Below are positions 13,193-57,560 of a stretch of 64,000 nt of DNA, in pieces. Source of the DNA: Candidatus Omnitrophota bacterium (GTDB lineage: Bacteria > Omnitrophota > Gorgyraeia > Duberdicusellales > 4484-171); NCBI GenBank assembly GCA_021735045.1, contig JAIPHU010000002.1:10120-74119 (forward strand), read 5' to 3'. The notes under the pieces are model-generated. The model saw nothing but the letters and a program-made list of their open reading frames with translations, did not search any database and was not told the DNA's origin. Every line of letters begins with the position of its first letter. The first letter of the stretch is position 1. The position numbers and the translations under genes were made by a program.

Positions 13193-13864
13193 ATGGATTG
13201 GAAAGAGCTTGTTGCCGAACCTGGCAAAGAAATGCTGAGAAAGATTGGGGAGTATATTCCAGCTGTGTTGGGTGCTTTGGTTATTTTGATTCTTGGTTGG
13301 ATTATTGCAAAGGTTATCCAAAAGCTTGCCCGTAAATTTCTGGATTTAGTTAGATTTGAAAAATTTGCTGAAAAAGCTGGGATATCAGAGGCATTATCTA
13401 AAGGAAATATTAAGAATAATGCTACTCAATTATTAAGTGCATTGGTATATTGGTTCATTATGATTTTAGTTTTGGTGATGGTAGTCAATGCTTTAGGTTT
13501 AACTGTGGCATCACAGTTGCTTGACGGGCTGCTTGGCTATATCCCTAATGTTATTGCAGCTGTTTTTGTGCTGGTTTTAGGTTTATTTTTAGCTAATTTG
13601 GTTTCAGGAATTGTGAGAACTGCTGCTAGTAACGCAAAACTACCTAAACCGGAAGTATTAGCTGGATTAAGCCAGTGGGCTATAGTAATTTTTGCCGTAA
13701 CTGCATCCTTGCGCCAGTTGGGAATAGCGCCATTTTTAGTATCTACTACTTTTTATATTCTCTTTGGAGGGATTTGCTTGGCCTTGTCCTTAGCTTTTGG
13801 GCTAGGTGGAAAAGATGTGGCTGCAAAATTATTAGAAGATTTCCGGAGCAAATATATAAAGTAA
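13193..13864 (+). CDS. integral membrane protein with repeated TM helices (conserved TM-helix-repeat / MscS-like N-terminal type)
   Basis: Start chosen at the ATG preceded by aaaggaggtgtcat. The ORF track starts earlier, at 13136, without an RBS. 4 to 6 hydrophobic helices. Confidence 0.55.
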   Translation: MDWKELVAEPGKEMLRKIGEYIPAVLGALVILILGWIIAKVIQKLARKFLDLVRFEKFAEKAGISEALSKGNIKNNATQLLSALVYWFIMILVLVMVVNALGLTVASQLLDGLLGYIPNVIAAVFVLVLGLFLANLVSGIVRTAASNAKLPKPEVLAGLSQWAIVIFAVTASLRQLGIAPFLVSTTFYILFGGICLALSLAFGLGGKDVAAKLLEDFRSKYIK

Positions 13865-13980
13865 GCAGTTGTTGAAAAAACAATAATCCTTCGTTTCCGA
13901 AAAAAGGAGGCGAAGGATTTTTAAATTTAAGAATAAATTAGATGGTTTTATGGTAAAATATTTACAAAATAAAAACTATT

Positions 13981-14229
13981 ATGAAAAGGCCAGATATAGA
14001 ATATCCTTGTGATTGGGGCTATAAGATTATCGGAGAAGACCAAGAGCTGCTTAAAGATACTGCTGCCAAGATAATAAATGATAGAGACTATACTATTAGT
14101 GTCTCTGGCAAAAGCAGAACCGGAAAGTATACCTCTTTAGATATAAAAACTAGAGTTTTAGATCAATCTGACCGGAATAAAATATTTTCTGATTTTAGCA
14201 ATCATCCGAGTGTAAAAAAGGTATTATAA
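13981..14229 (+). CDS. YbeD/DUF493-like small protein
   Basis: 82 aa. DIEYPCDWGYKIIG is typical of the UPF0250 N-terminus. Confidence 0.5.
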   Translation: MKRPDIEYPCDWGYKIIGEDQELLKDTAAKIINDRDYTISVSGKSRTGKYTSLDIKTRVLDQSDRNKIFSDFSNHPSVKKVL

Positions 14230-16157: not shown

Positions 16158-16993
16158 CCAATATTTTTAATTTTTTTAACAACAGATTTTATGATATTTT
16201 CTGGAGTGGAGGCTCCTGCTGTTATCCCCACTGACTTTATATTTTTAAACCAATGTGGGCTAATTTTTTTCTCATTTTCTATCCAATAAGTCTTGGGGTT
16301 TATTTTCCTAGATATCTGATAAAGTCGTTTAGTGTTAGCGCTTGCTTTTGAGCCAATGATTAAGACCAATTCATTCTGATAAGACATTGTTTTTATCTCA
16401 TTTTGTTTTTGACGAGTTGGTTTACAGATTGTATCTATAAATTTTAAATGAGGGATATATTTTTTTATTTTGTAAACAATATTTTTTACTTCATCGATAT
16501 TTTGAGTTGATTGACTAATCACAACAGCTTTTTTTAAACCTTTTAGCATTTTTTTTTCTATCTTAACTTTTGGGTTAAATACTAGCGGTTCTTTATCTAG
16601 TTGTCCCACTATACCCTGTACTTCGTCGTGTTTTTTATCTCCAATGATAATTATTTTATAACCTTTGTTTTGGTATTGTTTAGCAATTTGATGGATTTCT
16701 TTTACCATCGGGCAAGTTGCATCAATAATCTTATAGCCGAGTTTTTTCGCCTTTCTATAAGTTGATTTTGGTGCTCCATGGGCCCGGATCAGGAGGGTTT
16801 TATCTTTTCCGTTAGTTAACTTATTGATTTTTTTAATCCCCATTTTTTTGATTTGCTTGACAACTTCTTCGTTGTGGACTATATCGCCAAGCATATCAAT
16901 TTTGGCACAATTTTTTACAGCTTCATCAGCAATGATTAAAGCTTGTTTTACCCCCAAACAAAAACCCGCGGATTTTGCAATGTTTATTTTCAT
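16154..16993 (-). CDS. ispH: 4-hydroxy-3-methylbut-2-enyl diphosphate reductase
   Basis: 279 aa. GFCLGVKQA, HNEEVV and three conserved Cys regions. 4-nt overlap with the upstream crtB-like gene. Confidence 0.85.
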   Translation of the reverse strand: MKINIAKSAGFCLGVKQALIIADEAVKNCAKIDMLGDIVHNEEVVKQIKKMGIKKINKLTNGKDKTLLIRAHGAPKSTYRKAKKLGYKIIDATCPMVKEIHQIAKQYQNKGYKIIIIGDKKHDEVQGIVGQLDKEPLVFNPKVKIEKKMLKGLKKAVVISQSTQNIDEVKNIVYKIKKYIPHLKFIDTICKPTRQKQNEIKTMSYQNELVLIIGSKASANTKRLYQISRKINPKTYWIENEKKISPHWFKNIKSVGITAGASTPENIIKSVVKKIKNIG

Positions 16994-17853
16994 AAGTATT
17001 TAAAATTAAGTACAGTCGATAAACTAATTAATATTTTATCTGAAATAGTAGTATAGGCTCGTTTTTTAAAAATATTATATTGATTTTGTTCAATTTTATC
17101 AAGTATAGCTGCATAAATATTTTTCATAAGATATATTGTTAATCGGCAACGGCATCCAGTTATAAACTTTATTCCTTTTTCTGATTCTTGGTAAAGCTTC
17201 CGGGCTTTGTTTATTTGAAATTTCATAAAATTGACAAAATTGTCATCTACTATTTCTTTCTTCAAGTTGTTTTGGCTGATATTAAATTTTTTGAGGTCGT
17301 CTTTTGGCAAATAGATCCGGCCTCGCTTAAAGTCTTCTTTTATATCCCGTAAGATATTTGTTAGTTGCATAGCGACTCCAAGGTCTATCGCATATTTTTT
17401 AGCGCTCTTGTTTTTAAAGCCAAAGATATAGAGCATAATTAATCCTACAACTCCAGCTACTCTGTAACAATATTTGTAAAGTTGATCATAGTTTGTGTAG
17501 GTATTTTTTTCTAAATCCATCTGCATGCCTTCGTTTAGATGGTCAAAATATTCTTTTGGTATATTATAGGAGTTGATAGTTTTTCTAAATGCAGAAAGTA
17601 AACTTGAGTTTGGTGGTTGAGATAAATAGGCAGCATCAATATTATTTTTTATTTGCTCTAATTTTTTTCGATTTCCTAGGCTGTTATCTACGCTATCGTC
17701 GCTAATTCTACAAATGGCATAGATAGCATAAGCGCTTTTTTTCTTTTGAAAGTTAAGTAGAATAGAGGCGAAGTAGAAGGATTTTGCATTTTTTTTAGTT
17801 ATTTTCTTTGCTAATTTAAATCCTTGGTCAATCTTTGTATTTTTTTTTAACAT
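16990..17853 (-). CDS. squalene/phytoene synthase family (CrtB/HpnD-like)
   Basis: YCYRVAGVVG, two Asp-rich regions and NILRDIKED. Confidence 0.8.
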   Translation of the reverse strand: MLKKNTKIDQGFKLAKKITKKNAKSFYFASILLNFQKKKSAYAIYAICRISDDSVDNSLGNRKKLEQIKNNIDAAYLSQPPNSSLLSAFRKTINSYNIPKEYFDHLNEGMQMDLEKNTYTNYDQLYKYCYRVAGVVGLIMLYIFGFKNKSAKKYAIDLGVAMQLTNILRDIKEDFKRGRIYLPKDDLKKFNISQNNLKKEIVDDNFVNFMKFQINKARKLYQESEKGIKFITGCRCRLTIYLMKNIYAAILDKIEQNQYNIFKKRAYTTISDKILISLSTVLNFKYL

Positions 17854-19454: not shown

Positions 19455-20498
19455 TTATTCTTGAGTCAGTAGGGGCAGAAAATAATTGTTTAATGCTTTC
19501 TTGTAAGATTTTTTCATTGCTAGTTGATCAAGTATTTTTTGGCTTTTTTTGATCAAGTTTTGAATGTCTTTTTTAGCCAAGTTAAGGGAGTTTGACTGAA
19601 GGATAAGTTTTTGGATTAAGGCGAGATCCTTTTTGTTAATTTGTTCTTTTAAGAGTAAATCTTTAATTTTAACCTGTTGTTTTTTCCGGCTTTTATTGTA
19701 AGCATAAAATATAAGTAAGGTCTTTTTTGCTTCTTGCAGATCAGAGGTTTGCGATTTTCCTGTTTTTTTCTCATCGCCAAAAATTCCCAAAATATCATCT
19801 TTTATTTGAAAAGCTCTTCCTAAACATTTTCCGTAAGCATTTATCTTATCTATTTCTTTTTTATTGACTCCTGCTAAAATTGCTCCGGTTGAAAGAGGAC
19901 AGGAAAAAGTATAGAAAGCTGTTTTGTAGTCATATATTTTATAGATATCAGATTTTTTCAGTTTATTTAGGGGCTTAATCCCATTGATCAGTTCAATGAA
20001 TTCACCGGATCCAGTAAATATGGCTGCTTTAACAAAGTTACGCAAAGCTTTTTCTTTTCGTCCAAAATTTTCTTTAATTGACAAGAAAGCATTGATTGCC
20101 AGCGCATAAACAATATCTCCAACTACAATTCCCAGATCATTACCGTTAAATTTTGCTTTTTTGTTTTTAGCTAAATAATTATCAAACATTGCATGCATCG
20201 AGGGTTTGCCACGGCGGGTTTCTGACTTATCAATTATATCATCATGGATTAGCATAAAGTTGTGAAGTAGTTCTATCGAAAGCGCACTTTGGTAAAGTCC
20301 GGCTGCGGATTTATTTTTATAGCCTTGGTAACCAACTATAAATAAGATAGGTCGGATTCTTTTTCCCTTGCGGAGGCTAAAATCTTTAATTTTATTAAAA
20401 AGAATCGGTGAGATAGAAGATAAAGAGTAGTCTTTATCTAGTTTGGCGAGGAAACCAGAAAGATTCTTATCAATTTTCTTTTTTATTTTTAAAAACAT
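19455..20498 (-). CDS. polyprenyl diphosphate synthase (GGPP synthase-like)
   Basis: First Asp-rich motif LIHDDIIDKSETRRG and second Asp-rich motif FQIKDDILG. Confidence 0.85.
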   Translation of the reverse strand: MFLKIKKKIDKNLSGFLAKLDKDYSLSSISPILFNKIKDFSLRKGKRIRPILFIVGYQGYKNKSAAGLYQSALSIELLHNFMLIHDDIIDKSETRRGKPSMHAMFDNYLAKNKKAKFNGNDLGIVVGDIVYALAINAFLSIKENFGRKEKALRNFVKAAIFTGSGEFIELINGIKPLNKLKKSDIYKIYDYKTAFYTFSCPLSTGAILAGVNKKEIDKINAYGKCLGRAFQIKDDILGIFGDEKKTGKSQTSDLQEAKKTLLIFYAYNKSRKKQQVKIKDLLLKEQINKKDLALIQKLILQSNSLNLAKKDIQNLIKKSQKILDQLAMKKSYKKALNNYFLPLLTQE

Positions 20499-24126: not shown

Positions 24127-24157
24127 GGCCCCGAAATCGTTTGGTTTCGGGGTTTTT
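24127..24157 (+). terminator. rho-independent terminator after the ferredoxin gene
   Basis: CCCCGAAA-tcgtttgg-TTTCGGGG followed by T5. Confidence 0.7.
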
Positions 24158-24163
24158 AATATC

Positions 24164-24192
24164 TTGCATGCTTATTTATTTTAAGATACAAT
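24164..24192 (+). promoter_or_regulatory. sigma70-like promoter TTGCAT-17-TACAAT immediately upstream of the (AACCAATT)n leader
   Basis: Read directly. The predicted TSS falls at the first repeat unit. Confidence 0.5.
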
Positions 24193-24194
24193 TT

Positions 24195-24271
24195 AATTAA
24201 CCAATTAACCAATTAACCAATTAACCAATTAACCAATTAACCAATTAACCAATTAACCAATTAACCAATTA
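24195..24271 (+). repeat. about 9.6 perfect tandem copies of the octamer AATTAACC (CCAATTAA register) running directly into the ATG at 24272
   Basis: Counted directly: 9 full units, and the 10th unit is converted into the start codon (aattaATG). There is no Shine-Dalgarno sequence. Confidence 0.95.
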
Positions 24272-24985
24272 ATGCCTTACTCAATCCTTTTAGTTGATGA
24301 TGACAAAGTATTTCAGCAAGAATTCATAGCTTCTTTCGATGATTATTCAATCGTTCCTGCCTGTTCAGGAGAAGAAGCGCTAAAGATATTAAGCAAACCG
24401 CATGAAATCGATTTGGTTTTACTGGATGTGATGCTGCCTGGCCAACGGGGGACTAAAATCCTAAAAAAGTTAAAAAAAACCAAACCAGAGTTGAAAGTAA
24501 TAATTTTAACTGGTTACAGCAACAAAGATATTGCCATTGAGGCCTTAAAGGCTGATGCTGATGATTATCTGGAAAAGCCCCTTGATTTAGAAAAGGCAGC
24601 GGCTATCTTTGAACAATACTTAAAGTATGGAACCAAAAGGAGTAATTTAGGCGCAAGTAGTATTGAAGAAAAAATTGCCAGGGTAAAAGAGTATATCCAG
24701 CGCAACTACCATACCCAAGTTTCTTTAAATGATGCTGCAAAAATAGTTTTTTTAAGCCCGAAATACTTAAGCCGGGTTTTTGCAAAGGTAACCGGTCAAG
24801 GGTTTAATCAATTTAAGCTTTCTTGTAAGATTGACAAAGCCAAAGAGCTGCTTCAGAAAAGTTCCTTAACTATTGAACAGATTTCTTATCAATTAGGTTA
24901 TCAAAATATCGAATCTTTTGTCCGGATTTTTAAAAAGTTTACTGGTAAAAGACCGACTCAATTTCGTAAAAAAAAGAAAAAATGA
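24272..24985 (+). CDS. response regulator, REC + AraC-type HTH
   Basis: LLVDDD, LVLLDVMLPG and C-terminal AraC helix-turn-helix signatures (LSPKYLSRVF, SFVRIFKKFTG). Confidence 0.85.
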   Translation: MPYSILLVDDDKVFQQEFIASFDDYSIVPACSGEEALKILSKPHEIDLVLLDVMLPGQRGTKILKKLKKTKPELKVIILTGYSNKDIAIEALKADADDYLEKPLDLEKAAAIFEQYLKYGTKRSNLGASSIEEKIARVKEYIQRNYHTQVSLNDAAKIVFLSPKYLSRVFAKVTGQGFNQFKLSCKIDKAKELLQKSSLTIEQISYQLGYQNIESFVRIFKKFTGKRPTQFRKKKKK

Positions 24986-26502
24986 AACAAAATTTAATTT
25001 TATCTCAGTGTCGGCTTGCTAAATTAATTGATGAGCCAGTGATCACCTGTGATTTAGATAATAAAATTTTGCTTTGGAATCAGGGAGCCGAGAAAAAATA
25101 CGGTTGGACAAAAGAAGAAGCACTAAATAAAGATGAAAATCAACTGCTAAAAACAAAAGCCAATCAAGATTTTCGCCAAATTAAAAAAGAAATTAAAAAG
25201 AAGGGGAAATGGGAAGGTGAGTTAGTTCAGGAAAAAAGTGATGGTAGAAAAATTATTGCCTGGAGCAAATGGGTTTATGATCGAGATCAAGCCGGAAATC
25301 CGATCGCAATAATTAAAATTAACAATGAAATCACTCACCAAAAAAGAATGGAAAGTGCCCTAGAGAACGCTTATCAGGAATCAGAAAAAACTGCAATTAA
25401 ACGTACGATAGAGCTGCAAGAAGCAAATGAACTTTTGGCCCGAATATTTTCGTCAACTTATGTTCTTTTTGCTTATCTGGATATCAACTTTAATTTTATC
25501 ACTGTGAATAAAGCTTATGCTGATGCAGAAGGAAAATCGATCGATTATTTTCCCGGCAAAAATCATTTCGATCTTTATCCTAATCAAGAAAATTTAGAAA
25601 TATTTAAAAAAGTGCTGGCAACCGGAAAAACCTATCTTTGTTACGAAAAACCCTTTATTTATCCAGATCAGCCGCAAAAAGTCACTTATTGGGACTGGAC
25701 TCTGGAGCCGATTAAAGATCCTTTTGGCGAGGTGGAAGGGTTACTTTTATGTTTAGTAGATGTAACCGAAAGAAAACTGCAACAAAAAGAACTGATTGAG
25801 ACCGAGAAAGAATTGTCTGGTGCTCAGCGTTTATCCAGTCTAGGAACATTGTCGGCAAGTATCGCTCATCAATTGCGCACTCCTTTAGCGGTGATTAAAA
25901 TGGCTACCTTTAATATTAAAAGAAAAAGCAAGAATCCCGAAATTGCAAAACATATTGAAAATATTGAGAAAAAAATATCAGAAAGCAGCCATACGATCAC
26001 CAACCTCTTAGCTTATTCTCGCCTGAAGCAACCGGATTTTGAAGAAGTTTATCTGGATCAGTTGTTGACTGATTGCATCAAAACTCACCAAAAACTATTT
26101 TCGAAAAAAAAGATTAGAATCAAAAGAGATTTAAAAAGTTTAAAAAAAGTTTTATTTAAATTAGATTCCTATCAAGCCCAAGAAATTTTTAATAATATTC
26201 TCACCAATGCTTGTCAAGCTTCGGCTGAAAAGAGCACGGTTGAAGTCAAAGCCGAAAAAGGAAGCGACTTTAAATTTTTAATTAAAATTTCCGACCAAGG
26301 TTTGGGGATTAATAAAGAAAATATAAAAAGAATCTTTGAGCCGTTTTTCTCCCGCAAAAAAACAGGCACCGGCCTCGGTTTAAGTTTGGTTAAAGAGTTA
26401 GTGGACCTAAATCGGGGAAAAATCAATATAGAGAGCAAAGAAGGAAGAGGAACCACAGTTACTCTAGAATTTTCCGCCGAAAGCATACCTGCCCGTACTT
26501 AA
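24982..26502 (+). CDS. cytoplasmic PAS-PAS sensor histidine kinase
   Basis: H-box SIAHQLRTPL, N-box NNILTNACQAS, G-boxes DQGLGI and TGTGLGL. No TM segment. 4-nt overlap with the upstream regulator gene. Confidence 0.85.
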   Translation: MKQNLILSQCRLAKLIDEPVITCDLDNKILLWNQGAEKKYGWTKEEALNKDENQLLKTKANQDFRQIKKEIKKKGKWEGELVQEKSDGRKIIAWSKWVYDRDQAGNPIAIIKINNEITHQKRMESALENAYQESEKTAIKRTIELQEANELLARIFSSTYVLFAYLDINFNFITVNKAYADAEGKSIDYFPGKNHFDLYPNQENLEIFKKVLATGKTYLCYEKPFIYPDQPQKVTYWDWTLEPIKDPFGEVEGLLLCLVDVTERKLQQKELIETEKELSGAQRLSSLGTLSASIAHQLRTPLAVIKMATFNIKRKSKNPEIAKHIENIEKKISESSHTITNLLAYSRLKQPDFEEVYLDQLLTDCIKTHQKLFSKKKIRIKRDLKSLKKVLFKLDSYQAQEIFNNILTNACQASAEKSTVEVKAEKGSDFKFLIKISDQGLGINKENIKRIFEPFFSRKKTGTGLGLSLVKELVDLNRGKINIESKEGRGTTVTLEFSAESIPART

Positions 26503-28678: not shown

Positions 28679-29068
28679 ATGGATATGGCCAAGAAGAAAA
28701 AAAATATTATGATTGTTGATGATGATGACGATTTACGCAATGAGTTATCAGAAATCATGCGTGAGGAAAATTATGAAGTAGAAGCTTTTTCAGACGGTAG
28801 GGAAGCTTTGGCTAAAATTACAGAGCTTCATCCCCATGTTTTACTTCTCGATATTAGAATGCCGAAAATAAATGGAATTCAAATGTTGGATAGGTTAAGA
28901 AGCAGGAACGCGATTGACGGGACAAAGGTCATCTTAATTACCGGATTTTATGATCAACAGAAATGCAAAAGAATATTGCAGATATACGATGCAGATTCAT
29001 ATTTATTAAAACCTTTTGACCCGGAGGATCTGATAAAGAGAGTTGAAACAATCACTAAAGAGAATTAA
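28679..29068 (+). CDS. stand-alone receiver-domain response regulator
   Basis: VDDDDD, LLLDIRMP and KPFD. Confidence 0.85.
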   Translation: MDMAKKKKNIMIVDDDDDLRNELSEIMREENYEVEAFSDGREALAKITELHPHVLLLDIRMPKINGIQMLDRLRSRNAIDGTKVILITGFYDQQKCKRILQIYDADSYLLKPFDPEDLIKRVETITKEN

Positions 29069-29112
29069 TAATTAGAGTTTAAAATAAGTTAAAAATTTTA
29101 TTAGGAGGAGAA

Positions 29113-30015
29113 ATGGAAGAAGTTGTAATCGTGGGAGCAGGGATCTCCGGCCTTACTGCTGCAATTTATGCAAAGCGGAAAAAAATGGATTTTGTTCTGT
29201 TGGGGGAAAATTTTGGCGGTCAATTTCTCGAATCGGGGAAAATCAATAACTATCCCGCAATTACAGAGATTAACGGTACAGAATTGAGCAAAATGTTTGA
29301 AAAGCAACTTAAATTTAATCAAATTGAACCAAAAATCGGGGAAAAAATTACTAAAATTAGCAAGATTGATTCTGGTTTTAAGCTAGAAGGTAAAAAGGAT
29401 AACTATCAAGCCAAAACGGTAATTATTGCCACGGGTTCTCATCCGAAAAAACTGAGCATCAAGGGTGAAGAAGAATTTGCGAACAAAGGTTTAACTTATT
29501 GTTCAATTTGTGACGGCCCTTTATTCTCTGGTAAAACTATTGCTGTAATTGGCGGAGGTAATTCTGCCTTAGAAGGAGTTGATTTTACGCATAAGGTTGC
29601 GAAAAAAATTTATTTAATTAATATTGACCAAAAATTTAACGCTCATCAGGAATTAATTGATAAAGCTACTGCTTACGATAATGTTGAAGTGGTTAATGAA
29701 GCAGAAACTGAAGAAATCTCGGGAGAGAAAATGGTAACTGGCCTTAAATACAAAAAAGACGGAAAAATGCATGAGTTAGCTGTTGACGGAGTAATTGTTG
29801 AAATCGGCAGAACTCCGAATACGGATTTTTTAGAAGGTTTTCTTCAATTAAATAACAAAAAACATATCCAGATAGATTGTCAGTCTAGGACTTCCGTAGA
29901 AGGGGTGTTTGCTGCCGGAGATTGTGCCTCGGGTAATGAATACCAGTATGCGATTGCTGCCGGCCAAGGCTGCATAGCTTTACTGAAAGCTGCCCGCTAT
30001 CTAGCCGGCAGATAA
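29113..30015 (+). CDS. thioredoxin-disulfide reductase-like flavoprotein
   Basis: GAGISG FAD site, redox CSICDG, and GGGNSA NADPH site. 300 aa. Confidence 0.8.
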   Translation: MEEVVIVGAGISGLTAAIYAKRKKMDFVLLGENFGGQFLESGKINNYPAITEINGTELSKMFEKQLKFNQIEPKIGEKITKISKIDSGFKLEGKKDNYQAKTVIIATGSHPKKLSIKGEEEFANKGLTYCSICDGPLFSGKTIAVIGGGNSALEGVDFTHKVAKKIYLINIDQKFNAHQELIDKATAYDNVEVVNEAETEEISGEKMVTGLKYKKDGKMHELAVDGVIVEIGRTPNTDFLEGFLQLNNKKHIQIDCQSRTSVEGVFAAGDCASGNEYQYAIAAGQGCIALLKAARYLAGR

Positions 30016-30076
30016 CCATGGTACCACTGTGCACACCCGGTGTGCATATAAATAGGACAAGAATGAGGAGGTAGAA

Positions 30077-30643
30077 ATGAGCAGTGAAAGAAAGTATAAG
30101 GTGCAGCCAGCTGGCCCTTTAATGAAGGAGCACCGAGTAATTGAAAAAATGGTATCTTTACTTGAAAATGAAAGAAAAACTTTAGAAAAAAGTGATGTTG
30201 ATGTTTGCTTTCTAAAAATTGCAGTAGATTTTTTCCGGTTTTATGCAGATCATTGCCATCATGGTAAAGAGGAAGATATTTTATTTTCCAGATTGGAAAA
30301 CAAGGAAATAAGCAAAGAGCATCAAGAGATTATGGAAGAATTATTTGCTGACCATAAAAAGGGGCGTAAGTTGACCAAAGAGTTAGATCAATTGGCGGAT
30401 AAAGCAAAAGAAGCAGGTACTAAAGACAGGGTTGTAAATATTTTAGATGAGTTAGTTTCTTTGTACCGCCAACATATCCAAAAGGAAGATCAGCAATTTT
30501 TTTTACCGGTTATGGATTATTTTGATAATGTCGAAAAGGATGCAATGATCGATAAGTTTTTTGATTTTGATAAAGATTTAATTCACAAGAGATATAGTAA
30601 TATAGTTTCTGAATTAGAAGAAGAAAAAAATGGTGAGAAATAG
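30077..30643 (+). CDS. hemerythrin-like (HHE cation-binding) domain protein
   Basis: HCHHGKEEDILF and further H/E ligands. RBS ggaggt. Confidence 0.75.
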   Translation: MSSERKYKVQPAGPLMKEHRVIEKMVSLLENERKTLEKSDVDVCFLKIAVDFFRFYADHCHHGKEEDILFSRLENKEISKEHQEIMEELFADHKKGRKLTKELDQLADKAKEAGTKDRVVNILDELVSLYRQHIQKEDQQFFLPVMDYFDNVEKDAMIDKFFDFDKDLIHKRYSNIVSELEEEKNGEK

Positions 30644-30670
30644 TTATGGTTAACAAAAGAGGAGATTTAT

Positions 30671-31255
30671 ATGGATAAAGCATTATTGATAATTGATTTA
30701 CAAAATGATTTTTGTCCGGGAGGAAAATTACCAGTTCCCGAAGGAGACAAGATAGTTGAACCTTTAAACAACTATATTCAGATTTTTCAAGCAAAAGATT
30801 TACCGATTTTTGCTTCCCGTGATTGGCATCCGGAGAAGACCAAACACTTTAAACAGTTTGGGGGCAGGTGGCCTAAACATTGCATCCAAAACACAAAAGG
30901 AGCAGAATTCCATCCGGAGTTAAATTTACCTGAATCAGCAGTAGTTTTATCCGCCGGGATGGACCCGGAATCTGAAGGTTATTCCGTTTTTGAAGGAAGA
31001 AGCCAGAATCAGAAAAGATTCCAGGGGCTGTTGGAGGAGCAAAATATCCAAGAGCTTTATATTGGTGGATTGGCTACCGAATTTTGCGTCAAGCATACTG
31101 TGTTGGAAGCATTGGAAAGGGGGTTTAAGGTCTGGCTTTTAGTCGATGCGGTATTGGGGATTGATTCAGAAGAGGCAAAGAAGGCTAAAGAGGAAATGAC
31201 CGCCAAAGGCGCAAAAACGATAACCCTCAAACGTTTGTCCAAAGTTAAAAAGTAG
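30671..31255 (+). CDS. isochorismatase-family hydrolase (nicotinamidase/pyrazinamidase-like)
   Basis: ALLIIDLQNDF. Catalytic Cys in ELYIGGLATEFCV. Confidence 0.8.
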   Translation: MDKALLIIDLQNDFCPGGKLPVPEGDKIVEPLNNYIQIFQAKDLPIFASRDWHPEKTKHFKQFGGRWPKHCIQNTKGAEFHPELNLPESAVVLSAGMDPESEGYSVFEGRSQNQKRFQGLLEEQNIQELYIGGLATEFCVKHTVLEALERGFKVWLLVDAVLGIDSEEAKKAKEEMTAKGAKTITLKRLSKVKK

Positions 31256-31332
31256 ATAAAAGTCAAAAAATGTGCGAAAATACCAGTTGTATTTGTTAGC
31301 TATTGTAATATCATAAAACAAAAGGAGGTAAA

Positions 31333-31728
31333 ATGGCAGAGCTTGAAAAATTATATCAATCTGCGGATTGGAAACAAGAGAAGCATGTTCCGGTAATCGA
31401 TGCACCGGAGAGCGTAAAAAAAGGAGAATTTTTTTCAATTGAGGTAACTATCGGTAAAGAAGTCGCTCATCCAAACAAAACCGAGCATCATATTGCTTGG
31501 GTAGATGTTTATTTTCAACCGGAAGGGTCAAAATTCCCTTATCAGATTGGAAAGACTGAATTTAGTTCCCACGGGGCATCAACAGAAGGGCCGGATACTA
31601 GCTCTGTTTACACTCATCACAGGACATCGTTAAGTTTTAAAACAGATAAAGCCGGCACGCTTTTTGCATCGAGTTATTGCAATATTCACGGCCTCTGGGA
31701 AAACTCAAAAAAAATATCTGTTAAATGA
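31333..31728 (+). CDS. superoxide reductase (neelaredoxin/desulfoferrodoxin centre-II type)
   Basis: EKHVPV, HP..E..HHI.W and C-terminal CNIHGLW iron ligands. No N-terminal CxxC desulforedoxin domain. Confidence 0.85.
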   Translation: MAELEKLYQSADWKQEKHVPVIDAPESVKKGEFFSIEVTIGKEVAHPNKTEHHIAWVDVYFQPEGSKFPYQIGKTEFSSHGASTEGPDTSSVYTHHRTSLSFKTDKAGTLFASSYCNIHGLWENSKKISVK

Positions 31729-33504: not shown

Positions 33505-33861
33505 TTATTTTCTGGCGAGATCTTTAGCTATAATTTTCTTTATAACATCTAAACTATTTTTTTTTATTTTATAGAATTCAATGCCTGTATCATAATAAAA
33601 AAGATCTTTGCTTTGTATGTTTTTGCGGCTAAAAACCCACAAAATTTTACCTTGGCAAAGGATAGGCTTTCTTTTGATTGTATAAATTTTAAGATTAACT
33701 ATTGAGCCAGAGCTGAATTTATGTTTTATTATTATGCGCAAGCCACCGGCGCTGATGTTTCTAGTTTTTGCTGATATGTTGTTAGGCGATCCAGATAGAT
33801 AAATTTTAAGGGGCAGGCTTATTCGGACAAATTGTCTTCGTTCATGGCTATCCCAACTCAT
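33505..33861 (-). CDS. stand-alone PilZ-domain protein (c-di-GMP receptor)
   Basis: RRQFVR (RxxxR) and NISAGG (D/NxSxGG). Minus-strand promoter TTGACT-18-TTATAAT at 33886..33916. Confidence 0.7.
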   Translation of the reverse strand: MSWDSHERRQFVRISLPLKIYLSGSPNNISAKTRNISAGGLRIIIKHKFSSGSIVNLKIYTIKRKPILCQGKILWVFSRKNIQSKDLFYYDTGIEFYKIKKNSLDVIKKIIAKDLARK

Positions 33862-45067: not shown

Positions 45068-46026
45068 TGTCTAAAATTATATTTATTGTAGGGCCGACGG
45101 CTACGGGAAAAAGTGATGTTGCCTATCTTTTGGCAAAAAGGCTCAAGGCAGAAATTATTTCCTGTGATTCGATGTTAGTCTATAAGGAGCCAAAGATAAT
45201 TACAGCAAAACCTGCAAAAAAAATGTTATCAGATATTCCGCATCATTTTATAAATTTAATTTCAGTTACTGAGAAATACAGCGTTTATGATTATTATCAA
45301 AAAGCAACCAAAAAAATAAAAGAACTTTATAACCAGAATATTCCGGCAGTTGTCTGTGGTGGAACCGGCCTTTATTTTAAGGTGCTTTTAGATGGGATTT
45401 TTTTACAATCAAAAAAGGATGACAGCCTACGAAAAAAACTTTATCAACAGGCTAAAGAGGGAGGGCTTGGAGTTCTATATAAAAAGTTGAGCCGGGTTGA
45501 TCCCAAAACTAGCGAAAAGATTTCCGAAAACGACCAAAAAAGAATTATAAGAGCCTTAGAGGTATATTACCTTACTGGCAAGCCTATATCTTCTAAGAAA
45601 AAAGAAGCCAAAGGTCTTTGGGGTAAAACCCCGATTAAGGTCTTTGGCCTAAAGTTAGATCGAGGTAAGTTGTATGAGAGAATAGAGCAAAGGGTAGATG
45701 ACATGTTTAGCCAAGGAGCTATAGACGAGGTCAAGGGTTTATTAGATAAAAAACTGAGTTTAACTGCTGAAAAAATTATCGGCATCAATGAAATAAAAGA
45801 TTATTTGAAAAATAAAGGGGACAGTCTCCATACAGGGACAGTTCCCCTAGTTGGGGAAGCAAAAGAAAAGATAAAACAAAATACGCGCCGGTTTGCAAAA
45901 AGGCAAATCACTTGGTTTAAAAAAGACCCGCGGATAGAATGGATTGACGCCGAAGGTATGGCTGCTGAAGAAGTAGCAAATATGATAAGATGCAAGATGC
46001 AGGGAGCAAAAGGAGATAAACAATAA
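45067..46026 (+). CDS. miaA: tRNA dimethylallyltransferase
   Basis: P-loop GPTATGKS. Typical MiaA length of 319 aa. Confidence 0.9.
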   Translation: MSKIIFIVGPTATGKSDVAYLLAKRLKAEIISCDSMLVYKEPKIITAKPAKKMLSDIPHHFINLISVTEKYSVYDYYQKATKKIKELYNQNIPAVVCGGTGLYFKVLLDGIFLQSKKDDSLRKKLYQQAKEGGLGVLYKKLSRVDPKTSEKISENDQKRIIRALEVYYLTGKPISSKKKEAKGLWGKTPIKVFGLKLDRGKLYERIEQRVDDMFSQGAIDEVKGLLDKKLSLTAEKIIGINEIKDYLKNKGDSLHTGTVPLVGEAKEKIKQNTRRFAKRQITWFKKDPRIEWIDAEGMAAEEVANMIRCKMQGAKGDKQ

Positions 46027-46214
46027 ACAAATAACAAATTCCAAACAAATCCCAAATTACAATAAATAATAAAAGGGAAATATTAAAAAATCCAAATAGT
46101 TTTTAATTTGTATATTGTCTATTAGGTATTGTTTGTGATTTGGGATTTGTATATTGTAATTTATTCGCATCTTGTATTTTGGTTATTGATTATTTCACTG
46201 CGAAAAGTTAAACC

Positions 46215-47942: not shown

Positions 47943-47969
47943 TTAGCACTCTTGGCTTGGGAGTGCTAA
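47943..47969 (+). promoter_or_regulatory. CIRCE operator (HrcA site) TTAGCACTC-N9-GAGTGCTAA
   Basis: Perfect consensus read directly, 21 nt upstream of the hsp20 ATG. Confidence 0.9.
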
Positions 47970-47990
47970 GAATAAAAAAGGAGGTAAATT

Positions 47991-48437: not shown

Positions 48438-48474
48438 ATTGTTTGCACTCCCAAGCCTAAGGTGTTATTTTGTT

Positions 48475-48498
48475 ACCAATTAACCAATTAACCAAATT
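48475..48498 (+). repeat. 2.5 copies of CCAATTAA abutting the clpB ATG (same octamer as at 24195..24271)
   Basis: ccaattaaccaattaaccaaatt + ATG. No Shine-Dalgarno sequence. Confidence 0.9.
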
Positions 48499-51482: not shown

Positions 51483-51509
51483 TTAGCACTCCCCGATTCA
51501 GAGTGCTAA
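51483..51509 (+). promoter_or_regulatory. CIRCE operator TTAGCACTC-N9-GAGTGCTAA upstream of hrcA
   Basis: Perfect consensus read directly. Confidence 0.9.
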
Positions 51510-51533
51510 ACTAAATTAAAAAGTAGTTAAACT

Positions 51534-52933: not shown

Positions 52934-54853
52934 ATGGCAAAAATAATTGGAATTGATTTAGGTACATCGAACTCATCAGCAGCTATAATGGAAGGTGGAA
53001 GACCTTCAATAATTCCTTCGGCTGAAGGCGCTGGAGTTGCAAGTGGAAAAGCTTTTCCTTCAGTAGTTGCTTTTACTAAAGACGGGCAAAAATTGGTAGG
53101 CGAACCGGCTCGCAGGCAAGCTTCGGTCAATCCGGAAGGAACTATAAGCGGGGCAAAAAGAAAAATGGGGACGCAGTTTAAATTTAAAGTTTACGATAAA
53201 GAGTATACCCCGCAACAAATTTCTGCTTTTGTTTTACAAAAAATAAAAGCAGATGCCCAAAGTTATTTAGGTGGTGAAATAAAAGATGCAGTTGTGACTG
53301 TACCGGCTTATTTTAACGATAATCAGAGGCAAGCAACAAAAGATGCAGGTACTATTGCTGGTTTGAATATAAAAAGAATTATCAATGAACCTACTGCAGC
53401 TTGTCTTGCTTATGGCTTAAATAAAGTTGGCAAGGAACTTAAGATCATGGTTTTTGATTTTGGTGGAGGAACCTTAGATGTAACTATTATGGAGATGTGG
53501 GAAGAGGGCGGTTTTAAAGTCCTTTCTACCCATGGTGATACAAACTTAGGTGGACGGGATATGGATCAAGCTTTAGTTGACTATATCGCAGAAGATTTTA
53601 AAAAAGAAACTGGTATTGACCTACGCAAAGATAAGATGGCAGATCAACGTTTGAGAGAGGCGGCAGAAAAAGCTAAAATTGAATTATCCAGCACTCTAAC
53701 TACCGAGATTAATCTTCCCTTTATTACAGCTGATCAATCTGGCCCTAAGCATCTTACTAAAACAATCAATAGAGCAAAATTAGAAGATTTAGTAAAGTCT
53801 ATTGTAGAAAAGACTGAAGGGCCAATTAAGCAAGCAGTAAATGATGCAAAGCTTACTACCAAAGATATTGATAAAATTATTATGGTAGGGGGGCCGACTC
53901 GGATGCCGCTTGTGCAAAAAACAGTCGAAGATTTCGTAGGAACAAAGATTGAAAGAGGGATTGATCCTATGGAATGTGTATCAATGGGCGCTGCAATTCA
54001 AGGTTCTATTATCACCGGAGAGACTAAAGATGTCCTCTTGCTTGATGTTACACCCTTATCATTAGGCCTGGAAACATTAGGAGGAGTTTTTACTAAACTC
54101 ATTCCTAGAAACACTACGATACCTACTAAAAAAAGCCAAATTTTTTCAACTGCAGAAGATAATCAAACTGCAGTAACTATTAGAGTCTTGCAAGGTGAAA
54201 GAGAGATGGCTAAAGGAAATACTGAGTTAGGTAGGTTTGATCTTGTTGGTATTCCTCCTGCACCTCGAGGTGTCCCTCAGATTGAAGTTACTTTTGATAT
54301 TGATTCTAATGGAATTGTCCATGTATCGGCTAAAGACAAAGGTACTGGCAAAGAACAGTCAATAAGGATAACTGCTCCGCAAAAACTTTCAGATGAGGAT
54401 ATTGATAAAATGGTTAAGGAAGCAGAAAAACATGCCGAAGAAGACAAAAAACAAAAAGAATTGATTGAAGTTAAAAATAAAGCAGATTCAGTAGTTTATA
54501 CTACAGAAAAATCACTAAAAGATTATGGAGACAAGATCTCTGATCAAGAAAAGAAAACAATAGAAGAAAAGGTTAATAATTTAAAAGAAATTTTGAAAAA
54601 ATCTGATAGTACCAAAGAACAAATTGAAAAGGCTATGGAAGAGGCTACACAAGCTTCTCACAAGCTGGCTGAACAGATGTATAAAGCTCAAGGCGCACAA
54701 CAACAGCAAAAACAAGCTGGAACCGGTGGGCCGGGCCAAGAAGGAGCTCAAAGTTCAGAGGATCAGCAGCAACAAGCTCAGCAGCAAAGCAAAGGAGAAG
54801 AAGACGTAGTTGATGCTGAATATAAGGAAGAAGACAACAAAGACAATAAATAG
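52934..54853 (+). CDS. dnaK: chaperone DnaK (Hsp70)
   Basis: [18 protein letters not shown] and the rest of the canonical Hsp70 sequence. Acidic/Q-rich C-terminus. Confidence 0.97.
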
Positions 54854-54931: not shown

Positions 54932-54958
54932 GCGATGAGCCATCAGCCATGAGCCAAG
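54932..54958 (+). repeat. tandem heptamers (ATGAGCC-like x3), the inverse complement of the 54864 array, overlapping candidate dnaJ start codons
   Basis: gcgATGAGCCATCAGCCATGAGCCaag. Confidence 0.85.
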
Positions 54959-54966
54959 AACTAATT

Positions 54967-56076
54967 ATGAATACACAAAGAGATTACTACGAAGTTTTGG
55001 GTTTACAGAAAGGCGCCTCGATAGAGGAAGTAAAAAAGGCTTATCGTAAGCTTGCGATGAAGCATCATCCGGATCGAGTTTCTGAAGACAAGAAAAAAGA
55101 AGCTGAAGAGAAGTTTAAAGAGATTTCGGAGAGTTATGCTGTTTTAAGTGATCCTAAGAAAAAACAGCTTTATGATCAGTATGGGCATGCCGGGGTAGAT
55201 TCACGCTACAGCCAGGAAGATATTTTTAGAGGAGCTAACTTCTCTGATATTTTTGGTGGTGGTGGAGGTGCTGGATTTGAAGATATTTTTGGCAGTATTT
55301 TTTCTGATTTTGGCTTTGATATGTTTGGTGGAGGCGGCCGAGGCAGAAGAGGTGGTTTTAAGCAGTCTTCTGGTGAAAGTATTCAAGCCCGAATCAAGAT
55401 TAGCCTAGAGGAAGCTGCATTTGGCGCAGAGAAGGAAATAAGCTACTATAGATTTGATCCCTGCCCGAGGTGTTCAGGTACGGGAGTTAAACCTGGTTCT
55501 TCTAAGGTTACCTGTTCTCTTTGTAAAGGTACAGGGACAGTTAGAAGTGGGATGGGTTTTATCAGTGTTTCCCAGACTTGCCCGAACTGTCGGGGCCGGG
55601 GAAAAGTTATTAAAGATCGCTGCCGTCAATGTTCTGGAGAAGGACGAGTAAAAAAGCAACACCGGATGAAGGTAAAGATTCCTAAAGGTGTAAAAGATGG
55701 TTCAATTTTACGTCTTAATAAAGAAGGTAGTTTTTCCGGCCAGGCGCGGGGCGATCTCTATCTTCATATTACAATATCCTCTCATCCGCAATTTAGGCGT
55801 GAAGGTAAGAATCTACGTTGCCATATAGGGGTTGATGCTTTAGATGTTATTTTAGGAACTGAGATTAAAGTACCTACATTAAATGGGAAAGTAAAAATGA
55901 AAATTCCTGCCGGGACACAACCAGACACAGTATTTAGGCTAAAAAATAAAGGTATGCCAGAACTAAACTCAAGTCGGTTTGGTGATGAATTAGTTGAAGT
56001 AGGAATTAGAATTCCAAAAAAGGTTTCAAAAAAGGAGAAAAAACTTTTTGAAGAAATAGCTAAAATGCGCAAGTAA
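54967..56076 (+). CDS. dnaJ: co-chaperone DnaJ
   Basis: Start chosen at [13 protein letters not shown], the canonical J-domain N-terminus. The ORF is also open from the ATG at 54949. J-domain HPD motif, G/F-rich linker, four CxxCxGxG zinc fingers. Confidence 0.9.
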
Positions 56077-56367: not shown

Positions 56368-57560
56368 TGGGTCAAACCATTAAACCATTTAAGGCAACGC
56401 ACTACAATCCAAATTTATTTAACGATTTTTTAAAAATAGCTTGTCCTCCCTATGATGTGATTAACAGCAAGAGAGCTGCATTTTTAAAAAAACGCTCTCC
56501 TTATAACTATTGTCGAATTAGTCTTGCTGAAGGCAAAAATTATGATAAACCTGCTTGTAATTTGCAAAAGTGGCTTGACCGAAAAGTTCTAGTTGATGAT
56601 TCGAAAAGAAATTATTATCTGTATCAGCAAGAATTTGTAATAAGGAAAAAGAAAATTTTTCGTTATGGTGTTCTTTGCTTGCTTAATATGAAGAAAAAAG
56701 AAATTTTTCCCCACGAGCATACCTTAGATAAACCTAAAGAAGACCGTAAAAAGATGATAGCAAAACTTAAGGCAAATTTAAGCCCGGTTTTTGTGATTGC
56801 TGGCAATACAGACAGTTCTTTAGATGCTATAGCGAAAAAATATAGAAAAAAAGAGCCATTCATTAAATTTAAAGACGATGAAAATAATTTTAATTGTCTT
56901 TGGAAAATAAGTGAAAAAAAAGATATATCACAAATTTCATCTTCCTTAGAAGGTTCGTATCTGGTTATTGCTGATGGACACCATCGATTTGAAACTTCAT
57001 TTGATTATTTTCAAAAAAATAAGAATAAGTTTAAAGATCTTAACTATATTCTTGCTTATGTCACTATTCCACAACCGGGATTGGTGATACTGCCTACACA
57101 TCGAATCATTTCTTCAACTATAAAAAATCAGGATAATTTCAATAAATTAAAGGAGCTGTTTAAGGTAAAACTAATAGATAAAAAAAATCTGGAGAAAAAA
57201 TTAAATACTATCAAAAAATTTTGTTTTGGAATATATTGGAATAAGAAATATTATCTTGCAACCTTGCAAAATAATAACATTTTAGATACAATATCTCCAC
57301 CGATATATAAAAAATTAGATACTTATGTTTTTCATCAATCTGTTTTATCTAAGATATCTTACAATAAAATAAGTTATACTCATAGTATTGACCAAGCAGA
57401 GAAAAATACTAAAAGTAATCAGATGGCATTTTTATTAAAAGCAACGCCTTTAGATTCAGTTTTTGATATTGCAAAGGCTGGTTATAAGTTACCACAGAAA
57501 TCTACTTATTTTTATCCAAAAATATTTTCTGGTTTAGTCCTGCGGAGATTTAAGAAATGA
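56364..57560 (+). CDS. uncharacterised conserved protein (~400 aa; possibly DUF1015-type)
   Basis: No recognisable catalytic motif. 4-nt overlaps with both neighbouring genes. Confidence 0.5.
   Translation: MMGQTIKPFKATHYNPNLFNDFLKIACPPYDVINSKRAAFLKKRSPYNYCRISLAEGKNYDKPACNLQKWLDRKVLVDDSKRNYYLYQQEFVIRKKKIFRYGVLCLLNMKKKEIFPHEHTLDKPKEDRKKMIAKLKANLSPVFVIAGNTDSSLDAIAKKYRKKEPFIKFKDDENNFNCLWKISEKKDISQISSSLEGSYLVIADGHHRFETSFDYFQKNKNKFKDLNYILAYVTIPQPGLVILPTHRIISSTIKNQDNFNKLKELFKVKLIDKKNLEKKLNTIKKFCFGIYWNKKYYLATLQNNNILDTISPPIYKKLDTYVFHQSVLSKISYNKISYTHSIDQAEKNTKSNQMAFLLKATPLDSVFDIAKAGYKLPQKSTYFYPKIFSGLVLRRFKK

Follow-up and report, generated by a model that had tools for sequence, protein, structure and literature searches.

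A perfect octamer array as the predicted leader of a regulator-kinase operon in an Omnitrophota bacterium

The stretch of DNA analyzed here (hereafter the window) comprises 64,000 nucleotides of contig JAIPHU010000002.1 from a Candidatus Omnitrophota bacterium. It contains a two-component operon whose response regulator gene is preceded by a tandem array of the octamer ACCAATTA, which would fill the whole distance from the predicted transcription start to the start codon. The array is a real, non-random and hypervariable feature. On balance, we believe that the tract is probably a slippage-prone octamer microsatellite serving as an unstructured, Shine-Dalgarno (SD)-independent leader of the regulator-kinase operon. 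According to this reading, the microsatellite would have expanded inside the 5' leader of the operon, which it would now constitute, and a short relative of the array would form the leader of clpB. Comparison with published systems identifies the octamer leader as a new sequence variant of a known, little-studied kind of start-codon-adjacent repeat.

How ribosomes find start codons without an SD sequence is poorly understood beyond a few model organisms, and the question is raised by Bacteroidota, many Planctomycetes-Verrucomicrobia-Chlamydiae (PVC) bacteria and candidate phyla. A perfect G-free repeat extending from the predicted transcription start to the AUG offers a minimal and easily synthesized test object, in which unit number, orientation and G content can each be altered singly.

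Anatomy of the octamer array and its start codon

Tandem Repeats Finder describes the array as a period-8 repeat with 100% matches, no indels and a score of 156 (Table 1), in agreement with the near-ten-copy array adjoining the regulator ATG that had been proposed from the letters alone (the sequence-only reading). The locus reads ...TACAAT ttaatta (ACCAATTA)x9 ATG CCT TAC..., the final base of the array being the A of the regulator ATG (24272..24274; gap of -1 nt). The array unit AATTAACC is ACCAATTA in another register, and TTAACCAA is a further register of the same octamer. Both this array and the short one at clpB are intergenic. The two-unit pattern ACCAATTAACCAATTA, with at most 3 mismatches allowed, gives 13 matches in the window, a number that none of 100 shuffles reaches (mean 1.9, maximum 8). 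The remaining three of its matches (37673 on the minus strand, 56376 and the edge at 24192) are weak, chance-like or within coding sequence, and those at 56376 and 37673 were dismissed as further arrays on these grounds. The minus strand across the array holds no open reading frame (ORF).

The array occupies the space between a conserved promoter and the ATG, as the sequence-only reading had it, and no SD-like motif precedes either the regulator ATG or the clpB ATG. The predicted transcription start lies at ~24199/24200, ~7 nt past the conserved -10 box and on the first repeat unit, so that the array would be the whole 5' untranslated region (UTR); the mRNA would begin with (ACCAAUUA)9 and lead straight into the AUG. 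The promoter proposed earlier, TTGCAT-17-TACAAT, gains support from its conserved position in orthologs, but a generic sigma-70 scan does not call it, its -35 hexamer matching TTGACA at 3 of 6 positions. The promoter call therefore rests on positional conservation. A loose search for TTGC-N18-20-TAnnAT across the window returned 20 matches for 14.9 expected, which amounts to no enrichment, and TTGCA-type -35 hexamers also lie upstream of other window genes.

An intrinsic terminator isolates the regulator gene from the upstream ferredoxin gene, indicating that the regulator gene is its own transcription unit, and the overlap of the kinase start with the regulator stop indicates that the two genes form one operon. 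Pfam supports the identities previously given for the regulator (REC-AraC) and for clpB. In protein databases, the best matches carry the label Candidatus Omnitrophica, and one of these is 100% identical. The regulator C-terminus (window 24955-24990) is 5 residues shorter than in all orthologs; a deletion between A-runs (cgtAAAAAAAAGAAAAAATGA) fuses the regulator stop to the kinase start, and the N-terminus of the kinase is unlike that of its relatives.

The description of the leader as G-free and unstructured holds. The 88-nt G-free run is the longest on the plus strand of the window; in mononucleotide shuffles, the longest run averages 44 and never exceeds 67. Since the sense strand contains no G, AUG, GUG and UUG are absent from every frame of the leader RNA (24186..24273). 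For a 112-nt segment comprising the leader and the start of the coding sequence, folding prediction gives -2.8 kcal/mol and a fully open centroid, compared with -7 to -9.5 kcal/mol for SD-less orthologs and -18 kcal/mol for a distant, SD-bearing ortholog; the energy of the array leader is no better than that of shuffled sequences. Rfam covariance models yield no match at gathering score in the whole window, and a curated structured RNA family (riboswitch, thermometer or leader) was rejected for want of both an Rfam match and a stable fold.

The 57 ORF starts of the window divide into 19 with a strong SD, 10 with a weak SD, 8 that look leaderless and 20 with none. The earlier statement that most genes have strong GGAGG sites is thus not upheld, and with 20 SD-less and 8 leaderless-looking starts, the absence of an SD is not exceptional in this genome. 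In at least eight window genes, the ATG is preceded at 5-9 nt by a TAnnnT box, with a TTG-type -35 at a distance of 16-18 nt, which suggests that leaderless mRNAs are common in this Omnitrophota genome. No rRNA gene lies in the window. The UAACC of the repeat resembles the 5' arm of helix 45 of 16S rRNA, the partner strand of which is already paired.

Table 1. Coordinates of the arrays and associated features in the window
Feature	Position	Strand	Remarks
Intrinsic terminator of upstream ferredoxin gene	24127..24154	+	12-bp stem followed by T run; hairpin kept in all synteny-conserved orthologous loci
Predicted promoter of regulator gene	24164..24192	+	-35 TTGCAT 24164-24169, 17-nt spacer, -10 TACAAT 24187-24192
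G-free run, -10 box to AT of ATG	24186..24273	+	88 nt; UAA in all three frames
Tandem octamer array	24195..24272	+	9.8 perfect copies; essentially all of predicted 5' UTR
Response regulator (REC + AraC-type HTH), 237 aa	24272..24985	+	Pfam Response_reg + HTH_18/HTH_AraC
PAS histidine kinase	24982..26502	+	start overlaps regulator stop (ATGA)
Predicted clpB promoter	48443..48471	+	-35 TTGCAC 48443-48448, 17-nt spacer, -10 TATTTT 48466-48471
Short array, ACCAATTA x2.6 then ATT	48475..48498	+	abuts clpB ATG; no SD
clpB, 869 aa	48499..51108	+	Pfam ClpB domains; Hsp20 gene upstream
Leaderless-type starts	16990-17853, 19455-20498, 33505-33861	-	
Leaderless-type starts	17957, 32155, 38221, 43041, 58419		

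Leader turnover among orthologs and the array at clpB

Orthologous loci (labelled L001 and onward) were compared where they keep the ferredoxin-regulator-kinase synteny; L019 has a different gene context. In the synteny-conserved loci, the terminator hairpin, a TTGC-N16/17-TAnnAT promoter and the coding sequence are conserved, and the leader between them varies. The positions of TTGC and TAnnAT are fixed in L001, L002-L007, L011, L018 and L181, with the changes confined to the leader downstream. The window allele, taken as the protein reference, has 9 perfect units. Of the contigs listed, six (L002-L006 and L010) encode one identical protein with 93% identity to the reference and carry 5 units, a mix of ACCAATTA and ATCAATTA. 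The same protein is encoded by L007, which has 8 units corresponding to the 5-unit allele plus 24 nt, and by L008 and L009, in which the contig starts within the repeat. Decayed period-8 arrays are present in L001 (94% identity) and in L180 and L181 (85%). Unrelated leaders of ~213 nt and ~90 nt are found in L011-L017 (87%) and L018 (81%), respectively, and L019 (59%) has a classical GGAGG. No synteny-conserved ortholog has an SD, which is present only in L019. The tract had been proposed to be length-variable, and among close relatives it is, with alleles of 9, 8 and 5 units next to decayed arrays; copy number is not invariant.

The leaders of L181 and L001 looked array-less at first. Their period-8 autocorrelation is nevertheless significant, at 0.61 (p<0.0005) for L181 and 0.51 (p ~0.005) for L001, and in L181 the proto-units ATTAACCG-ATTAACC adjoin the ATG. 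This retained periodicity indicates that the octamer period is old in this clade, with arrays decaying by point mutation and being renewed by expansion. The perfection of all nine units, in turn, points to a recent expansion as the origin of the window allele. The sequence-only reading had derived the ATG from a mutated tenth unit. This does not hold, as ATG CCT TAY (MPYSILLVDDD) is ancestral, being invariant in all orthologs, array-less ones included.

The leader of L018 (1410-1470; GCA_964605645.1) contains a different tract with a 7-8-nt period (tttgtaatttgaaatttgtaatttggaattt), which suggests that the regulator leader is a recurrent site of repeat formation. A search of a metagenome collection with the promoter and the first two units gave no match, and that collection lacks this population.

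At clpB, Tandem Repeats Finder reports a period of 8 with 2.6 copies and 100% matches at 48475..48495, and the three bases ATT separate this short array from the clpB ATG (gap of 3 nt). A copy without an SD had been noted at this site, and we find it there. The short array starts 3 nt past the -10 box of the predicted clpB promoter. The block TTTGCACTCCCAAGCCnAAGGTGTTATnTT, consisting of the -35 hexamer, a CIRCE-like (controlling inverted repeat of chaperone expression) spacer and the -10 hexamer, is kept in all clpB orthologous loci fetched. The spacer carries a CIRCE-like half site, and the CIRCE-like element TTTGCACTC-N9-AGGTGTTAT (48442-48471) is conserved in the orthologs. Behind this almost invariant promoter, the clpB orthologs have degenerate period-8 leaders or no repeat. 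The units of the relatives are degenerate TAACCAAA or TAATCAAT, with a period-8 autocorrelation of 0.76 in one group, and one relative has a purine-rich, non-repeat leader.

The short array lies in a heat-shock cluster of hsp20, clpB, a hibernation factor, hrcA and grpE. Fuller CIRCE halves (GAGTGCTAA) precede hsp20 (~47950-47985) and hrcA (~51500-51530), and the ORFs at 52934-54853 and 54949-56076 are putative dnaK and dnaJ genes, judged from size and position.

The octamer in other genomes and known repeats of its kind

In a sample with one genome per species, the pattern AYCAATTAAYCAATTAAYCAA occurs at a minimum of 119 genome loci. Among the matches listed (80 record titles), ~70% belong to Bacteroidota, and the rest to Ignavibacteria, Verrucomicrobiota, Planctomycetota, another Omnitrophota metagenome-assembled genome and a few archaea; the listed matches also include some Gammaproteobacteria and Cyanobacteria, mostly with the ATCAATTA variant. 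Almost all arrays are intergenic (122 of 123). Relative to neighbouring genes in general, no coarse strand preference is seen. A distinct picture is obtained for arrays lying at most 30 nt from the start of a long ORF, when arrays with the G-free strand in sense orientation are compared with antisense ones. At the genome loci, 17 of 46 sense arrays and 1 of 32 antisense arrays lie this close (Fisher p=3e-4; Mann-Whitney p=4e-4), and in metagenome contigs (120) the counts are 24 of 50 and 3 of 21 (Fisher p=0.008; Mann-Whitney p=5e-5). Near starts, the G-free strand is therefore nearly always the sense strand, and this held in two independent samples. The strand bias near starts shows that selection filters what occupies the last 30 nt of the leader, the arrays being either favoured or tolerated there.

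Start-codon-proximal copies beyond the regulator gene had been called for, and they are found at clpB and at many genes in other phyla. In 13 genome cases, the first G past the array is the G of the ATG. The downstream genes, judged from N-terminal sequences, are diverse housekeeping genes that include ugd (UDP-glucose dehydrogenase, three times), fumC (fumarase), uvrB, tgt, ribB, eno (enolase), metG and accC. In L066 (Paludibacteraceae), a TACTTTTG motif, the Bacteroidetes -7 box consensus, is followed by 7 nt, the array and the ATG, the same architecture as in the window. The register of the arrays to the ATG is not fixed but scattered, any preference being weak at best, and this speaks against an SD-like element that pairs at a set distance.

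Two metagenome contigs (L277 and L298) have genes that share an N-terminus (MAVLKPFKGIRPT...) behind arrays of 5.9 and 15.8 copies, a second case in which copy number differs at one gene. Heptamer and octamer repeats are unusually abundant in the genomes bearing the repeat (L020-L138), most of which are Bacteroidota. One 'viral' contig (L157; IMGVR_UViG_3300020160_001188, 14,178 bp) has inverted terminal arrays of ~320 nt at 1-330 and 13850-14178, which consist only of the octamers TAAACCAA, TTAACCAA and ATAACCAA and reach the contig ends, giving them the telomere-like look of a linear element.

The closest precedent for the octamer array is the TAACTGA heptamer repeat of marine Beggiatoaceae (MacGregor 2015, PMC4679880). 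The Beggiatoaceae genome (BOGUAY) has 169 sets of these direct repeats, mostly in forward orientation, the largest single class of which ends 1 nt before a start codon, usually without a ribosome-binding site (RBS). No functional theme unites the genes downstream, indels between related strains come in 7-nt steps, and the repeats are also present in some Cyanobacteria and Bacteroidetes. S1, Csp and CsrA were discussed as possible binders (PMC4679880). The octamer arrays share with these repeats their short tandem direct units, the almost exclusively intergenic location, the forward orientation a few nt from the start codon, the missing RBS, the whole-unit indels, the absence of a downstream gene theme and the presence in Bacteroidetes and in repeat-rich genomes. 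In contrast to TAACTGA, which has 7 nt and contains G, the octamer TTAACCAA/ACCAATTA has 8 nt, is G-free and shares only TAAC. It differs further in its Omnitrophota host, in apparently forming the entire 5' UTR from a predicted conserved promoter to the ATG and in a history of decay and re-expansion that can be traced in orthologs. The 64 kb window shows 2 loci of the octamer, next to the 169 sets per genome of TAACTGA. Tandem Repeats Finder detects no TAACTGA array in the window. With position, orientation, RBS absence and unit-step indels matching and only TAAC shared, the octamer array is the same kind of element as the TAACTGA repeats and not a member of the same repeat family.

Other known systems resemble the array in part. 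In Nostoc PCC 7120, heptamer repeats (TTTTGAA) lie near start codons or promoters, and their deletion changes reporter output (bioRxiv 10.1101/2022.06.06.494920). Like the octamers, these short units follow one another without gaps and lie, at many genes, no more than ~100 nt from a start codon or a -10 box; unlike the octamers, they occur in both orientations, with proposed effects mainly on transcription-factor access. The 5' UTR of Moraxella catarrhalis uspA2 contains an AGAT repeat whose copy number affects expression (Attia and Hansen 2006, as cited in PMC4679880). Both systems place tandem repeats with strain-dependent copy number between promoter and start codon, but the uspA2 unit has 4 nt with a G, the gene encodes a pathogen surface protein, and an expression effect was measured for uspA2 alone. 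With the SD-independent leaders of Bacteroidetes (PMC3155529, PMC6847099) and S1-dependent mRNAs (PMC3858243), the array leader shares the missing SD, the low predicted structure at the start codon and the AT-richness. Those leaders are ordinary and non-repetitive, whereas the present one is a perfect microsatellite in a genome that often uses GGAGG elsewhere. Reports of bacterial repeats with units of 6-9 nt are described as rare in PMC4692102. A literal search for the two-unit 16-mer in 8 million papers gave 114 hits; the 20 listed are all unrelated papers, apparently containing cloning-primer sequence.

A more distant likeness is to a viral leader. The Omega leader of tobacco mosaic virus (TMV) is a ~68-nt, nearly G-free and unstructured 5' leader with an 8-nt direct repeat, ACAAUUAC x3, and (CAA)n; it enhances translation without an SD, reportedly in E. 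coli too, through S1. The array leader, which is G-free, is likewise an unstructured leader of 8-nt direct repeats without an SD. Unlike the bacterial array, Omega belongs to a eukaryotic viral RNA, and the two units are similar in composition and not identical; enhancement of translation is reported for Omega and would be a prediction for the array.

Proposed mechanism and alternatives

Taken together, the predicted anatomy of the leader suggests a mechanism. Lacking G, the leader cannot form G-C or G-U pairs, hold false starts (AUG, GUG or UUG) or mimic an SD. It would thus present an open, start-codon-free runway, on which the first start codon from the 5' end is the true one. Initiation would be SD-independent and driven by the accessibility of the start codon together with binding of single-stranded A/U/C-rich RNA, for which ribosomal protein S1 is the obvious candidate; no S1 gene was seen among the part of the window ORFs that was scanned. 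Replication slippage would add or remove whole units and point mutations would then erode the array, so that the leader may cycle between perfect and decayed period-8 states over evolutionary time. A leader of this type suits a genome with many SD-less and leaderless-type starts, and judged from the sequence, such a role is plausible. Copy number may modulate output without being essential for expression, and an effect of this sort is likewise plausible.

Several results weigh against this reading. Orthologs with unrelated, non-repeat leaders keep the regulator gene without an SD, indicating that the array is dispensable; the exact sequence of the array may not matter. In other genomes, about half of the arrays are found beside gene ends or far upstream and not next to a start codon. 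The 857 kb of flanking sequence (L020-L138) contains ~150 further arrays with 7-8-nt units of diverse sequence, ~1 per 6 kb, and in viral contigs the octamer occurs at 13 loci compared with 9 and 2 for permuted G-free octamers. This is no convincing excess, so the octamer was rejected as unusually common, and we do not claim that the unit is special. Since permuted octamers are nearly as common, general repeat-proneness explains much of the distribution of the arrays. At clpB, no terminator is predicted between hsp20 and clpB, and read-through from hsp20 is therefore possible, which would place the short array inside a transcript and not at its 5' end. Finally, it is by inference that we place the transcription start, assign the way in which ribosomes are recruited and allow copy number a quantitative effect.

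Much of this could be accommodated if the tract were a neutral microsatellite, a by-product of slippage in an already SD-independent leader with no function of its own. We regard this explanation as unlikely, though it survives better than the other alternatives. Near starts, only the harmless G-free sense orientation would survive, as the complement would add UUG starts and G-containing pairing partners. The existence of orthologs with no array or a decayed one is consistent with it, as are the general richness of the host genomes in short tandem repeats, the similar frequency of permuted control octamers in viral contigs, the half of the arrays away from starts and the unfixed register to the ATG. 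Yet the same unit stands at two leaders 24 kb apart in a genome that otherwise has few such repeats, and period-8 leaders persist at both genes across several diverged lineages. The large fraction of arrays at most 30 nt from starts, seen in both samples, also speaks against pure neutrality, although purifying selection on orientation could yield that.

Alternatively, and with somewhat more doubt, the array could be a contingency or tuning locus, in which gain and loss of units would set the expression of the regulator and kinase and generate heritable, reversible variants, by analogy with the AGAT repeats of uspA2. Contigs with 5 and with 8 units encode an identical protein, two contigs start within the repeat, perhaps because assemblies break at a variable tract, and the nine perfect units of the window imply recent expansion. 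Further in its favour are the 5.9 and 15.8 copies upstream of one gene family (L277, L298) and the position of the repeat in the predicted 5' UTR, for which the uspA2 locus provides a precedent as cited in PMC4679880. On the other side, the alleles were found in separate samples, changes in length may have no effect on an unstructured leader, and the targets are a regulator with its kinase, a chaperone and housekeeping enzymes and not surface, host-interaction or restriction-modification genes. Should copy number indeed tune expression, uncultured bacteria would have in such arrays a simple means of adjusting regulators and chaperones in evolution; otherwise, the locus would still clearly illustrate how a microsatellite arises, expands and decays within a bacterial 5' UTR.

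A wider version of the favoured reading, which we hold to be doubtful, is that (UUAACCAA)n arrays constitute a distinct cross-phylum class of modular translation leader, a G-free runway devoid of start codons with SD-free ribosome recruitment and an output set by copy number, as a bacterial counterpart of the TMV Omega enhancer. Recruitment would proceed through S1 directly or through a dedicated protein with an oligonucleotide/oligosaccharide-binding (OB) fold, the arrays would be made and tuned by slippage, and the class would serve genes from regulators to enolase in Omnitrophota, Bacteroidota, Ignavibacteria and PVC bacteria.

The repeat could also be an array of sites for a single-strand RNA-binding protein (a cold-shock-domain protein, an S1-like OB-fold protein or another), with one unit or CCAAU core bound per domain. 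We consider this improbable. Each unit contains CCAAT, the core of the Y-box, to which cold-shock proteins reportedly bind. The periodic, orientation-specific arrangement adjoining the start codon and the presence of the octamer on two stress- or signalling-related transcripts in the window are in keeping with such sites. The genes led by arrays would form a post-transcriptional regulon, as MacGregor proposed for the TAACTGA repeats, and that proposal comes with candidate proteins (PMC4679880). Arguing against specific recognition, the register to the ATG is not conserved, the units have eroded freely in relatives that keep the genes, no common theme links the downstream genes, and the parts of the window that were scanned contain no candidate binder. 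Copy-number tuning and recognition by a specific RNA-binding protein overlap as possibilities and are not mutually exclusive.

As a DNA operator, the array would offer a row of sites to another factor or to the AraC-type regulator, whose regulon would then include its own gene and clpB, and would act as a roadblock past the promoter. Direct repeats are typical targets of AraC/XylS-type and CtsR-type regulators, and the motif does occur at the regulator's own gene and at a stress gene. However, the helix-turn-helix (HTH) domain (residues ~156-233) hardly varies among six orthologs with leaders that extend from a perfect array to unrelated sequence, which led us to reject the AraC operator and weakens the binding-site array for the adjacent regulator that the sequence-only reading had offered. 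Identical arrays also precede unrelated housekeeping genes in phyla without this operon, a double-stranded operator would not be expected to show so strong a strand bias relative to the gene that follows, and an 8-bp period is out of phase with the DNA helix. An operator of any kind therefore seems very improbable. We give hardly any credence to a leaderless mRNA, with a promoter inside the array, a start at or beside the ATG and the repeat as promoter DNA: ~8 starts in the window are of the leaderless type, their -10 box lying 5-9 nt ahead of the ATG, and TTAACC resembles TTGACA at 4 of 6 positions, but the repeat offers no TAnnnT at the required distance (the available hexamers are ATTAAC, AATTAA and TTAACC), and a much better, ortholog-conserved promoter lies upstream, ending 79 nt before the ATG.

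Two further regions of the window deserve mention. Between miaA (isopentenyl pyrophosphate transferase) and hflX, a 59-nt G-free, A/C-rich degenerate repeat (46016-46074; ATAAACA / AAACAAATAACAAATTAC) and a partly complementary G/T-rich tract (46110-46165) could together form a long imperfect hairpin. Downstream of the two-component operon, an oxidative-stress-related cluster (28679-31728) encodes a stand-alone REC protein, a thioredoxin-reductase-like flavoprotein, a hemerythrin, an isochorismatase-family protein and a desulfoferrodoxin, with a strong GGAGG at every gene except that of the REC protein, which has a weak SD.

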